Below, one piece after another: positions 6,552-60,930 of a stretch of DNA of 64,000 nucleotides (the stretch's first letter is position 1; every line of letters starts with the position of its first letter). Under the pieces are notes generated by a model. It was not told the DNA's origin and searched no databases. It saw nothing but the letters and a program-made list of their open reading frames with translations. A program made the position numbers and the translations under genes. The stretch is from Eledone cirrhosa (taxonomy: Eukaryota), in the NCBI GenBank assembly GCA_964016885.1, contig OZ024755.1, positions 8,804,001-8,868,000 of the forward strand, given 5' to 3'.

Positions 6552-6943
6552 ATATTGTTATGCTTTGGGAGGGTCATGTTGCCAATAGGAACCACACGAA
6601 CCAGTTGCTTTCACTTCAATTTATTATAAATTAAATTTATAAATTTCCGGTTAGCTGGTTGGTTCCACAACCAGACGATTGGTCATATATTGTCACTGAA
6701 GAGGTCACAGAATATGTGACGAAAGAACTTTGACAATATGTGAACAATCGTCTGCTTGTGGAACCAACCAGCCAACCGGAAATTTATAAATTCCTAAATT
6801 TATAAATTTAATTTATAATAAACTGAAGTGAAACAACTGGTGCGTGTGTTTCTTATTGGCAACATGACCCTCCCAAAGCATAACAATATCGGTTTCAACA
6901 CACGTTTTCAGATAAAGAATCTTGCTAAACAAATTCAGAAACG
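6552..6943. mobile_element. Fold-back insert in (TA)n with a hammerhead at the apex
   Basis: Arms 6552-6695 and 6731-6889 are reverse complements. The right side continues 54 bp to 6943. (TA)n on both sides. Confidence 0.85.
6683..6743 (+). ncRNA. Minimal type I hammerhead ribozyme
   Basis: Stem I UCAUAUAUUGUCA/UGACAAUAUGUGA; core CUGAAGA 6696-6702; extra G; stem II GUCACA(GAAUA)UGUGAC; GAAA 6721-6724; minimal stem III AG(AA)CU; predicted cleavage after CUU at 6730. Confidence 0.8.
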
Positions 6944-7436
6944 ATATATATATATATATATAACATGTATACAGGATATATATATCCATCATCAAGATTA
7001 TTAAAAACCGTTCCTAAACACACAACTGTACAGCTGTAATAACAAACAGTACACTCATTGATCTTGACATTTTCTTGAGTGCCAGCCAGACAGAGAGAAC
7101 TGAATTATATTTTTAATTAGTGCAGACGTAATTCCAAACTCCTCTTTCATCTTATTATCCGTATTTCTACTATGTTTACCCTTCGGTTATTTAACTAGAC
7201 AGAACAGTTTTAATAAACTATAATAGAATGATACAAAGAAAACAGGAATAACACCTGGGTAGTTCGATTAATAAACTCACCTCATTATCTTTGGTAATCA
7301 GTGACTAGCACTGATTTGTAGTCTTGCCAACAGATTTCATACGTGATGATTCAGTTAGCAGTAAGTCTTCTTGCCACTGAAAACCATATAAACACAGTAT
7401 AATTGTTTTTTTACATGGTGATGAGACTATCTAAAC

Positions 7437-7998
7437 CTGAGGTTCTGAAAGTCGGCGCTACCGCCTCGCTGAGGATGTTGAGGAAGTCCAAGGGGGGGAA
7501 CTGGAGCCTAATGGGGTGGTAGAGGTCATTAAAGATGATATAATAGTATGTTAAATATCAAATGATACATATTATCGTCAATCGATCGACTTTCGTCAAA
7601 TCGGACCGAGCGAACAATGTTTCCATTGGTCTTTCCAATTGCTAATACTATCTATCGGTCGCAACTCCAGGTAGAAGGAGCATCGTGAAATAAAGTTTCT
7701 TGCTCAAGGAGATAACGCATCAGCCGGTCCGGGAATCGAAATCACAACCTCACGATTGCGAATACAATTCTCTTACCACTCATCCACGCACCTTCACATA
7801 CATATTATATATAAATATATAGAAGTAAAATAAAAATATATATTTATTTATACATAATATATATTATTTTATTCATTATTTATAAATTAACGATTTATTT
7901 ATTATATATTTTATGCTTCATGTGTGGGCAGGTCTCTCTGGAAATAGGTGTAGGAGCGCTGATGGTATTATGTGACCGTAAAACTTTAAGAACCCCTG
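7437..7998. mobile_element. Decayed hAT (Charlie-like) non-autonomous element with nested SINE
   Basis: Left end CTGAGGTTCTGAAAGT; right end ACTTTAAGAACCCCTG (reverse complement CAGGGGTTCTTAAAGT). The 8-bp flanks ATCTAAAC/ACATAGAC partly match. Confidence 0.5.
7677..7796 (-). mobile_element. tRNA-derived SINE family B
   Basis: Reverse strand TGAAGGTGCGTGGATGAGTGGTAAG (A box)...GATTTCGATTCCCGG (B box)...CCTTGAGCAAGAAACTTTATTTCAC. Confidence 0.8.
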
Positions 7999-9142
7999 AC
8001 ATAGACTCTGATAGACTCAAACTGTGTAAATGAAATTGAATATGCCTATGTCAGTTTCGACGATAACTGTTACAGTTGTTCGATTAAAATAACAGCCTAC
8101 TCATGAAAGTAGTAAGTGGCTCAGCGATTCCACAGACACGTGATTTCTTGACCTAATTCTAAGGGAGATTCAACGTTACAAAACTGCTCTTTTAAGTTAC
8201 AGCTACGGATAATCCGACGCATTTCCCAACATATTCTAACTACCAAGTATTACTTTCCAGGCCAGGATCAATCCGAGGCTATGTTCAATGACAAGTTTCG
8301 AAGATGTCAAACAATGTGATCGAAATGAACTCCCTAATCATTCGCCTATGCCTGATCCATTCCATCACATTAGATATGTTATCTATCTTGTACACATTTT
8401 TCTTAGCTTTATTTTTTATAACCTGGTCGGGTCACAAGATTTTGCTTGAATTGTAGATGATTATCTCTCTTTAGAATTACATTAGACAGCAGGGCTAGCG
8501 GATTCTCATGAGATTTCGTTGTTGCAGTTGTTGTTACGACTCACCTTTGCGTAGGATTAGTCAACCAACCATTTCATCAGAGCTTTCTTTTGTATTTTTA
8601 ATAACAAGAGCCAGTCCTATCATGTTAGGAGTTTTATGTGGCTAGGTGCTTTACTTGGACTGTTACTTTATATATCCACTGCAGAAATATGAAAGTCAAA
8701 GGTTACCTTGGTGGAATTGACCTCAGATCATAGGTAACCAGAGAAAATAACATAAAGCTTTAACATGTTGTTCTAACATAAAGCTTTTACTATGTTGTTC
8801 TAACACTCTTCTACCTCACCAACAAGTATGACCTTTGGAAAATTCTGAATATTGCATTTGTAAAACAGGTTGACATATGTAACAATTGTAGGAGATTTAA
8901 AGAATATCATTTGCCTTCTAGCTAGAGTAGAATATAGAGGAATCCAAATTTTATACATTAGTTTATTTCTTTGTTCATATGTATAGATTGTGACTAGAAA
9001 GAATTAGTATTGATTAATACAGGACACGCTTCTCAGCTGCTCTCCAGAAACAATATGTAAAGAACATTGTATCGTTTAGTATATGGAAGTTAAATATATA
9101 CTGTTATATATGGTTACATTTTTTTAAATATTTATTCAAAGC

Positions 9143-9364
9143 AGGGCGGTGGATTGGCAGTATCCGTACAGCATCAGGCAACATGATTTGTGGCAAGGAG
9201 GTACAACCCTTTACGTTCTGAATTCATATCCCGCCGTGGATAGTATTGCCTTTCCTCCTTACAGAGTTGAGAAAATAAAGTACGAGTTACGCACTGGGCC
9301 TATTTAATCGTTTTTCCCCTCGCTTAAAATTGTAGTCCTTGTTCCTAAATAAGAAACCATAATT
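9143..9364 (+). mobile_element. tRNA-derived SINE family A, long (older) subfamily
   Basis: AGGGCGGTGGATTGGCAGTATC head, GCCTTTCCTCCTT...AAAATAAAGTAC body and AGAAACCATAATT tail; extra internal segment relative to the short subfamily. Confidence 0.8.
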
Positions 9365-10169
9365 TTAGTCAGGGAGGGATGTTTAACATCCATGAAGTCT
9401 TCATGTTCTTTTTAGACAGCTGTAGTTATGCTGGAGGTATATGGACGTTTAATACTGACTAAACTCAACAAAGAGCACACATATGAGAGTTGCGTGTGAT
9501 AAACCGGATGACAGGTTACAACAATCATCCAAGTAGACCACAATGAGATTTGAAATCAGAACGAACAGAACAAGCTGTAGCAAGTAACACATGATATCCG
9601 GTCGGGTATTCTAAGAATTCCATTACTGAGTAGTAATTTATTTTATCCACTGGGTACAGTGGAAAGAAGGAGTTGACAACAGCAGAATTTAAAAATAAAA
9701 CATATGGAGCCAGAGCAATTTTCTTACGACATATTCGCCTACATAAGTCCTCTTGTGTCATTTTGTACCATTGATAATATATATGGTTCGACGCTTGCTT
9801 TCGTTGATTTAACTATTTGACATTACGGATAGCAAACTTTTACGCTAAATTATTCCCCTGGATATTATTGTGGGTGCATAATTACATATCTATCATTCCT
9901 TCTCGCTAGTTCTATGTACACAATCTTATGCACATCTTATTTTCAACACCATTATAAATTATAGAAAGGATGAATGTAAACGAGAAAGATGAATGAATGG
10001 GTAAACAAAATCGATTGAAATTATTAAATATTACCCAGAAATAAATATACAGTAGTTCTATTAAAGGTATTCGATGAGATTGCTCAATATGAGAGATGTT
10101 AATCTAGATTCTTCTACAGTACTATTTGAATAGAATTCACACTATTCACATTTAAAATCTTCCTACAAA

Positions 10170-59742: not shown

Positions 59743-60006
59743 TTTGACCCTTTCATTACTATAGGTCTAATGAAAGATTATGCTTATGATTTTTAAATTA
59801 TCGTGAAAATAACCAAGAATTTTTGTGTGGCAAGGGGTGGAGTTACTATCGTTTTCATTAGCCTTGTGTGTCGGAAATAGCAAAACACACATTCTTACGT
59901 AAAATTACGATGGAAAGTTTAGATAAGCATACACACTTTAAAATAAGCAACTCAATAAATTAGACCCAGGGGTGATTTCAGGCGGTTTACTATCAAAAGG
60001 TGTTAA
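59743..60006 (+). mobile_element. piggyBac-like MITE (decayed)
   Basis: TTGACCCTTTCATTAC ... TATCAAAAGGTGTTAA; related to 6096-6250. Confidence 0.45.
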
Positions 60007-60593
60007 TCGAGGTGGAATGAACGAGATAAAGTGTGTGACGAAGAACCGTCAAAAGAAGGTACATATGGAAAAGAGTAACGAAGGCTATGTCTTCTATAAG
60101 CGAGCATTGAGAGTTTACCTCAACACCAGTTGATTCTTGTTCTGTGTTTACTTTCGTGTGTGTAAGTCTATATGAGTGTGTACGTCCGCGTATGCGTGTA
60201 TCTCATATGTGTTTTGTTTATTTTGCGATCATACAGTAATGTTTATAAATGTTCTCTTTCATTTGATAATCAATGATAGATGTGAGCAAAAAACTAAAAC
60301 ATTCTACACAAACCTATTTACCCACATCGTTTGATCTGTGGTTGCTTAAATATTTATCAATCAGATAAAACACAAGACAACCAACGGTGGAGGGGTGTGT
60401 ATCGTCATGTTTTTTCATCCATAATATATGTTAATGGAAGAGAGTCTCACACACACGCATATATATACACACACACAAACACACATATACACAAACATAC
60501 ACTCACACACTCACGCACAAACAAACACAAAAAAACCCAAACACACAAAGACACATATTTATAATACTCATGATTTACATACATACTTTATAA

Positions 60594-60733
60594 TGAAGGT
60601 ACGTGGCTTAGTCGTTAGAGCGTACGGATCACGATTGTAGTGTTGTGAATTCGATTCCTGGCATCACATTGTGTCGTTGGGCAAGTCACTGTATTTCACA
60701 CTGCTCCCGGCCAATCAGATGGCAAAAATAAGT
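60594..60733 (+). mobile_element. tRNA-derived SINE family B
   Basis: TGAAGGTACGTGGCTTAGTCGTTAGAGC..GAATTCGATTCCTG..TGTGTCGTTGGGCAAGTCACT. Confidence 0.8.
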
Positions 60734-60771
60734 TCTATAATAAGTTCTATATATATATATATATATATATA

Positions 60772-60930
60772 TATAACAGATTAAAGTTAAAGTTTAAGCA
60801 AAGAATCGTTGCTTTCACCCTTAACGGGATCTTCTGAAACTAAAAAACATCAATCTGTGGACGCAGAAGTAAATATTTCGAAAAACGTTGCAACCGGATT
60901 TTAGTCTTCACCTTTATTATTATTACTATA
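60772..60930. mobile_element. CAGAAGA-hammerhead family, inverted two-part insertion in (TA)n
   Basis: 60772-60866 is the reverse complement of ~31994-32081; 60896-60930 is a direct copy of 32148-32182. Confidence 0.75.
60791..60841 (-). ncRNA. Type I hammerhead variant (CAGAAGA core)
   Basis: AGUUU-CAGAAGA-UCCC(GUUAA)GGGU-GAAA-GCAA(CGAUUCU)UUGC-UU-AAACU; all three stems form; predicted CUU cleavage between 60796 and 60795. Confidence 0.7.

Follow-up and report, generated by a model that had tools for sequence, protein, structure and literature searches.

Several short insertions in a 64,000-nucleotide stretch of Eledone cirrhosa DNA (NCBI GenBank assembly GCA_964016885.1, contig OZ024755.1, positions 8,804,001 to 8,868,000 of the forward strand; the whole stretch is referred to here as ‘the window’) take the form of hairpins set into (TA)n arrays, in which an inverted, truncated copy of a sequence end is joined head to head to a longer copy of that same end, such that the short arm lies flush with the array on one side whilst unpaired bases extend from the other. 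The asymmetry of these hairpins is solid; an overlap of three bases, TAT, between the short end and the array is a tendency with exceptions. We favour, at somewhat better than even confidence, a reading in which the hairpins are very short insertions of several (TA)n-targeting families of Penelope-like elements (PLEs), made by priming of reverse transcription at two sites and head-to-head joining of the two complementary DNAs (cDNAs). The architecture as such is already known. A sequence-only reading of the window had earlier drawn attention to it, claiming that the short arms stop at internal TA or AT dinucleotides that merge into the microsatellite, and had put forward what amounts to a proposal of L1-style twin or dual priming; its observation is partly confirmed here, and its interpretation partly supported.

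One-sided hairpins between TA runs

The window is 32% GC and holds 216 alternating T/A runs of at least 10 bases; every count given in this paper refers to this single 64-kb stretch. Between these runs lie 62 islands of 50-600 bases, six of which are filled by a long, non-repetitive hairpin (a tally made without the complexity filter, which had masked islands K and E). TA runs directly adjoin both sides of six of the seven long non-repetitive hairpins found, the older hairpin M having a short, interrupted run on one side. Arm ends were placed by aligning each locus to its own reverse complement, or to a longer copy elsewhere, and the strand given is the presumed direction from centre to tail; a hammerhead motif sets the sense at hairpin D and, weakly, at hairpin J. 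The hairpins and the other copies of family G are as follows (positions within the window).

290..696, minus strand: hairpin A; arms 373-497 and 571-696 (95% identical), loop of 73 bases, tail 290-372; short arm flush with (TA)n, sharing TAT
6556..6943, plus strand: hairpin D; arms at roughly 6555-6695 and at 6731-6886 (94%), with a tail at 6886-6943; (TA)n and the short arm overlap by ATAT
33647..33836, minus strand: family G copy 1 (G1); hairpin with arms of 54 bases (1 mismatch, 98%), tail 33647-33726 (80 bases), overlap TAT
33952..34116, plus strand: family G copy 2 (G2); a lone copy without a hairpin, set between TA arrays; tail end as in G1
38577..38708, plus strand: hairpin I, not in the sequence-only reading; arms 89%, overhang 35 bases; overlap T when strict, TATAT with one substitution
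47005..47168, strand not assigned: family G copy 3 (G3); tail end and short-arm end as in G1, other central joint; about 46 short-arm bases without a partner
49136..49455, plus strand: hairpin J; arms of 112 bases (96%), tail 49384-49455, overlap TAT
56503..56782, minus strand: hairpin K; arms of 85 bases (96.5%), tail 56503-56605; the exception, with an overlap of T only
60938..61130, plus strand: hairpin M (older); arms within 60938-61077 (84%); short arm ends within a TAT of the long arm; GC breaks the TA run; distal end undefined

At all six TA-bounded hairpins the overhang is zero on one side, where the arm abuts the array, and amounts on the other to 83 (290), 58 (6556), 80 (33647), 35 (38577), 72 (49136) and 103 (56503) bases; the claim that one arm runs 50-105 bp further thus stands as to one-sidedness, with a range of 35-103 bases. 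In each of the six, a truncated copy of the end lies inverted and head to head with the longer one, and at none do terminal inverted repeats (TIRs) pair the two ends of the island. Miniature inverted-repeat transposable elements (MITEs) that target TA would be expected to carry such repeats at both ends. A symmetric contrast lies within the window itself, in the form of a small element that we take to be Tc1/mariner-like:

6335-6425: small TIR element, inverted repeats at both ends, beginning CAGGGTGTC
28639-28731: second copy of the TIR element, one end gone and fused to a piece of family L (see below)

Only family G offers several usable copies, and it is here alone that the tail is confirmed as element sequence (three copies). 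Its tail end is the same in 3/3 copies and its short end in 2/2 (G1 and G3), even though the short arms of G1 and G3 are only 83% alike and their tails 91%. The central joints differ: G1 has a perfect apex at 33781, whilst G3 is joined at about 47098, its arms overlapping by only 14-18 bases or so and about 46 bases of its short arm remaining unpaired. The short arm of G3 thereby extends further 5′ than the long arm, a layout that folding back of a single strand cannot produce unless a later deletion is added; such a deletion could account for it. Between the two arms of G1, 1 of 54 sites differs; each differs from G2 at 4-5 of these sites. Taken from these alignments, the family G hairpin would appear to form anew at each insertion, with an inner end point that is preferred or fixed. 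Saying this, the short-end strand of the family offers just three TAT sites, and a shared end would arise by chance about one time in three.

These copies also bear on whether the hairpin is a pre-formed unit with set ends, be it a DNA element of MITE type or a non-autonomous hairpin, that is copied as a whole into (TA)n and has TAT as part of its terminus. Both ends are indeed the same in G1 and G3, the symmetric element at 6335 is at hand, and DNA transposons targeting TA microsatellites exist (MuTAnT; PMC4486113). Against this, the centres of G1 and G3 differ, G2 has no inverted arm, none of the six islands is closed by a TIR, and hairpin D carries a hammerhead; we regard a pre-formed unit as improbable.

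Overlap between the short end and the array

To measure overlap, we counted outward from the short end the bases of the longer copy that the (TA)n array also has, and compared the result with a null in which the break point falls at random along each long copy and the phase of the TA array is random; the chance of at least three shared bases is then 0.06-0.20 per junction. A scan of 108 complex flanks of TA runs also yielded four usable non-hairpin junctions; it left out simple-repeat junctions at 21294, 21535, 25017 and 25125, together with the natural 3′ end of a short interspersed nuclear element (SINE) at 13158, and missed 696, 47168 and 60776 through indels or divergence, these three being taken from the locus alignments instead. 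Two of the junctions belong to an unclassified family, L:

60776..60927, strand not assigned: piece of family L; an inverted segment that stops at TAT, together with the family’s 3′-like end; no hairpin in place
31990..32178, plus strand: longer family L copy, the reference for 60776 and 28639
28639..28662, minus strand: 24-base family L piece, ending at ATAT, 10 bases past where 60776 stops, and fused to the TIR-element fragment

The sequence-only reading had listed 60772 as a further short arm; it is instead this inverted piece, with a longer copy at 31990-32178, and no arm of a hairpin. Its coordinates were otherwise correct to within 1-2 bases.

The shared bases are TAT at 696 (697-699 against 370-372), 33836 (against 33724-33726), 47168 (against 47082-47084), 49136 (against 49384-49386) and 60776 (against the copy near 32075), ATAT at 6556 (6552-6555 against 6886-6889), and T only at 56782, where a looser fit (given as 56783) had already been noted and where the nearest TAT sites begin 6-8 bases inside the arm. 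Six of these seven junctions, all previously listed, therefore share at least three bases, so the claimed merging of arm and array holds for most of them; the word, however, is TAT or ATAT rather than any TA or AT, and there is no strict rule. Three added junctions gave ATAT at 28639, T at 38577 (TATAT if one substitution is allowed) and nothing at 60938. Over all ten, at least three bases are shared at seven, where 1.19 are expected (p = 2e-5), or at 6 of 9 (p = 2e-4) when 47168, which is the same site as 33836, is set aside. These small p-values are optimistic, since the earlier reader had picked loci that fit; among the long hairpins enumerated across the whole window, the figure is 4/7 (A, D, G1 and J).

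Could the overlap be chance, aided by a reader’s selection in AT-rich DNA? The added loci alone fit in just one case of three (p = 0.41), at a chance per junction of 0.06-0.20; the 4/7 of all enumerated hairpins and the 7/10 of all junctions nonetheless make this a very improbable explanation. The shared word is never ATA or TATA (7/7 end in T; post hoc p = 0.04 over six independent junctions), with ATA sites about as common as TAT in most arms. Array phase at TA-run boundaries in general was uninformative (233 T against 199 A, all runs).

As to whether end points vary, G1 (33836) and G3 (47168) end at the same site, an outcome that the sequence-only reading had itself named as refuting, albeit on a strand with just three TAT sites. 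The family L truncation points at 60776 and 28639, which lie 10 bases apart, both at TAT, are the sole sign of variable ends. Identical family G short ends combined with differing central joints indicate, for one family and two copies, a fixed internal start site coinciding with UAU.

A TAT overlap is not, however, unique to hairpins. It recurs at two of the four non-hairpin junctions, 13100 (a fragment of a SINE) and 30963/31330 (a duplication of local sequence), and nothing is shared at 31255 and 30900. The TA arrays of this window evidently undergo template switching. A TAT of this kind would suit an origin in the host: an array would break, slip or change template, then be rejoined at the closest TAT or extend from it, and an element once longer or symmetric would be trimmed at one arm; several TA-centred inverted duplications of flanking DNA in the window (one of them identical at 76/76 bases) and the loss of one end from the TIR-type element at 28639-28731 also fit. 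What such trimming leaves unexplained is that no symmetric survivor is found among the six hairpins, though the arms of five are 94-98% identical, that two copies only 83-91% alike share an end point, and that overhangs fall within 35-103 bases. We consider it quite unlikely as the main cause.

Other rearrangements and repeats at or near TA arrays were seen in passing. The 3′ end of a SINE plus its flank, 76 bases in all, is present as an inverted duplicate (31255-31330 and 31664-31739, 76/76 identical) around a 330-base TA array, and 64 bases are directly duplicated nearby, between TA runs (30900-30963 and 31835-31898); the duplications around this array are either the product of recent fold-back or an artefact of assembly. 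Just ahead of the SINE fragment, at 31190-31254, short bits of the adjacent SINE (GTAATGTA) are repeated between TA runs, as if slippage had recurred. Short TA-centred inverted repeats of flanking DNA, a class of palindrome distinct from the hairpins, lie at 11851-11892, 22465-22595, 51436-51543, 51930-52071 and 59026-59223. The SINE-like dispersed family itself, with an (ATT)n end and 74-95% alike, is found at 9143-9298, 10167-10359, 10754-10968, 13100-13158, 27932-28147, 35385-35508, 37528-37721 and 58820-59034, and a second, older dispersed family at 5584, 7687, 26951, 47865 and 62082. Two complex islands (2876-3068 and 34139-34268) are flush with TA arrays on both sides, occur once each in the window and were left unclassified.

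Hammerhead motifs and the search for coding partners

A strict type I hammerhead descriptor applied to both strands of the window gave two matches, at 6696 and 20067, both in TA-flanked islands, and none in 60 shuffles. At hairpin D, stem I belongs to the arms, and the test was therefore also run with stem I removed from the descriptor, again giving two matches against a shuffle mean of 0.075 (0/200 shuffles reach two). A third island carries a related half-core.

6683..6743, plus strand: apex of hairpin D, with a type I hammerhead motif; core at 6696-6702, a G left unpaired, stem II of 6 bp with a closing G-C pair, GAAA at 6721-6724, minimal stem III
19978..20252, plus strand: island E, TA-flanked and without a long hairpin; matches the type I hammerhead in full (core at 20067-20073, stem II of 9 bp, stem I of 8 bp)
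23319..23447, plus strand: island F, TA-flanked; CGAAAC, 19 bases, then CAGCTGATGA (half-core at 23334)

The motif at D uses the innermost part of the arms as stem I and points toward the tail; its unpaired base before stem II and its G10.1-C11.1 pair are as in the minimal hammerheads of PLEs, and two cores on opposite strands are reported for truncated PLEs, both in sections of PMC4209133. At hairpin J, each arm contains CTGATGA-CT-GAAA (49302 on the plus strand, 49217 on the minus) without stem I or II. The motifs and spacing of island F are, by eye, as in the consensus 3′ ends of Naiad_Obim and Naiad_Ovul in supplementary material of PMC8557442; the pattern matches once in the window against 0.02 expected, having been picked after it was sighted. 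The matches at 6696 and 20067 are single, lie 13 kb apart and form no tandem array, in contrast to the head-to-tail tandem units, each with a type I hammerhead, of which non-LTR retrozymes consist in the part of 10.64898/2026.07.22.740005 drawn on here. When the scan was relaxed to two core mismatches, specificity was lost (8/19 matches in islands).

Taken together, the one-sided tails (6/6), the hammerheads at 6696 and 20067, the Naiad-like end at 23334 and the symmetric contrast at 6335 support an origin by retrotransposition rather than by symmetric DNA-transposon TIRs, as the sequence-only reading had held.

A PLE origin might also be served by a single cDNA, the first strand folding back at an internal palindrome (e.g. 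hammerhead stem I), copying itself and stopping early, with its TAT 3′ end then joined to the opposite TA end of the target by microhomology-mediated end-joining. The apex of D is just such a hammerhead, pointing to the long arm as fold-back would predict; the two arms of a locus resemble each other more than they do those of other loci; self-priming at junction palindromes has been proposed (in a part of PMC3846280); and TAT is likewise shared at the 5′-truncated SINE at 13100, for which DNA joining is the one plausible route. Random early stops would, however, not be expected to give the shared end point of G1 and G3 nor the narrow range of tail lengths, and the unpaired stretch of G3 belongs to the short arm. 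On balance, we judge this route unlikely.

Two weaker traces may be recorded here. A TA-flanked segment at 38101-38240 starts with a decayed hammerhead (partial core at 38103, two core mismatches, GAAAC..GTC) and is probably a 5′-truncated PLE end. The arms of hairpin A contain GAAAC-AATT-GTA, a palindromic stem III box (464, minus; 604, plus), one arm having a core variant of the G3/C8 type; stem I is missing and stem II weak.

Searches for a protein-coding partner covered 36 reading frames (35 among 233 open reading frames and island frames, plus island F2) against Pfam, without a match to a reverse transcriptase or GIY-YIG domain. A protein search with the island at 23575-23712 gave no match, and the 45-residue frame of G2 was uninformative, an exhaustive search returning a single 1698-residue repetitive protein with 24 weak stretches. 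The TA-flanked island at 23575-23715 has a 46-codon open frame with no Pfam or protein match; we presume, unconfirmed by that search, a resemblance to the C-terminus of an RTE-type long interspersed nuclear element. A prokaryotic genome scan with the family G pattern gave 0 matches, and ARAGORN found 0 genes in the window. Rfam listed no hammerhead, either among the best 150 of 383 matches for the whole window or for two local stretches, the matches listed being only sub-threshold ones of microRNA or snoRNA type to hairpins and microsatellites. Annotation can readily mistake hairpins of this kind for MITEs or microRNA precursors.

A proposed two-site priming model and its relation to known systems

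Synthesising these observations, we suggest how the hairpins might arise under the two-site priming that we favour. Each insertion would comprise a tailed copy of the 3′ end, set head to head with an inverted copy that has no tail. An element-encoded GIY-YIG nuclease, acting in trans, may nick both strands of the (TA)n array, following which reverse transcription would have two starts, the distal end of the tail and an internal site specific to the family. The two cDNAs would each stop early, and their 3′ ends be joined, sometimes via a small palindrome in the RNA, as with hammerhead stem I at D. Within a family, the inner start would be preferred or fixed and usually UAU, with which a nicked strand ending ATA-3′ can pair by three bases; the overlap would then stem from that set position, and not from an open choice of TA positions. 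The layout, the one-sided tails, the TAT overlap and the orientation of the hammerhead at D are observed directly; the enzymatic steps, the sense strand outside D and J, and any use of UA at the distal end are what we infer. Annealing to RNA and joining of DNA are inseparable within the window, because both use the target end ATA-3′, so the attribution of the overlap to an RNA-annealed primer rather than to DNA end-joining or array growth is putative. The two-strand scheme of the sequence-only reading, with one internal and one distal start and head-to-head cDNAs, finds precedent in the systems discussed below; its free choice of TA site is conjectural, the short ends of family G being identical (2/2).

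Several results weigh against this model. The added loci fit poorly when taken alone, hairpins K, I and M fall below the three-base criterion, TAT appears at non-hairpin junctions too, and family G is the sole family with more than one usable copy. A full hammerhead is present in only one of seven hairpins (D), with no core in G, I, K or M, and Rfam, within the matches listed, names none; the Naiad and Hydra supplement of PMC8557442 contains none of the 13-base marker words taken from D and G; and the Pfam and protein searches were empty, so to speak, of PLE enzymes. The tails, at 35-103 bases, are mostly longer than the 30-40 bases of published PLEs in the same source’s account, and the start site of the one PLE studied in vitro, PAc (see below), has been described as lacking homology to the cut DNA and sits in an AC-rich stem-loop, whereas here the inner site overlaps the target by TAT (PMC11167929, in part). 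The hairpins nonetheless behave like PLE end insertions; by their sequences, membership is putative, the 36 frames compared with Pfam having yielded no coding partner.

A more specific version can be advanced only tentatively, and we think it rather doubtful: that the nuclease cuts in a fixed phase, leaving ATA-3′, and that this end acts as primer on a conserved UAU with which it pairs at the tail’s inner boundary, beside a conserved stem-loop. The tails of A, G and M carry the motif in question, TATTGAGT, at a distance of 16-21 bases beyond the boundary with the short arm (343-350, 33695-33702, 34061-34068 and 61096-61103), within a possible stem-loop. Across the window this 8-mer matches 7 times against 6.05 expected, so is not enriched, with 4 of the 7 in tails, and is kept as a lead only; the motif shared by the A and G tails was reached in 0-10 of 500 shuffles, as one of 253 pairwise comparisons. 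If true, a single telomerase-like step of primer-template pairing would yield the microsatellite preference, the one-sided tail and the inverted copy, with hammerhead stems giving homology at the joint. Should genome-wide counts confirm a TAT- and phase-specific overlap where tail and short arm meet, a nick position and a pairing step would be predicted that are testable in a PLE in vitro system.

Short non-coding elements in (TA)n arrays are, as here, a feature of MuTAnT, a TA-targeting Mutator-like MITE (PMC4486113). As set out in part of PMC2837659, L1 twin or dual priming has the second of the nicked strands pair with RNA, either at an internal site or on another molecule, and there start an inverted cDNA. 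Two cDNAs are thereby joined head to head, and microhomology at the junction is diagnostic. The products of twin priming are non-overlapping inverted pieces of one RNA with variable sites, whereas here both arms copy the same segment, the site seems fixed per family, and poly(A) was not seen at the hairpins.

Among PLEs, the Penelope of Adineta vaga (portions of PMC3846280) shares inverted pseudo-long terminal repeats (pLTRs) set head to head, an optional tail, palindromes at the inverted joint and solo pLTRs; its targets, unlike ours, are unique sequence with 8-10-base duplications, and self-priming was proposed. PAc, the Poseidon of Anolis carolinensis, cuts and extends both strands, with two internal start sites bounding the tail; it prefers AT-rich DNA and has a hammerhead in its pLTR (PMC11167929, in the part used here). 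The excerpts of PMC8969392 and 10.64898/2026.07.22.740005 contain nothing on junctions, and our literature search, with subscription papers such as Arkhipova 2006 outside its scope and several sources in partial text, found no report of a TAT overlap at PLE tail boundaries. A T-ending, three-base overlap at a family-fixed tail boundary, as these alignments suggest, is thus a small and possibly unreported detail.

The closest likeness is to the endonuclease-containing (EN+) PLEs described in PMC8557442, again in the part available. That account includes 5′-truncated insertions with an adjoining inverted truncated copy and a 30-40-base tail that is often at one end only, and a preference for (TA)n in Naiad, Hydra and Neptune, inside which a target duplication is unreadable; it names the formation of the inverted structures and the microsatellite bias as unsolved, and as far as it goes describes no junction overlap of the kind seen here as TAT. 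Octopus Naiads are listed there with a (TA)n preference and a half-core, in the 3′ untranslated region; they have no canonical hammerhead and have long been inactive in cephalopods, hammerheads being given for canonical clades and Hydra, so D and E would belong to another clade. The insertions of the present window differ from EN+ PLEs in being end fragments of 130-410 bases only, without a reading frame; they resemble them in 5′ truncation, in the inverted truncated 5′ copy, in the one-ended tail, and in insertion into (TA)n without a readable duplication.

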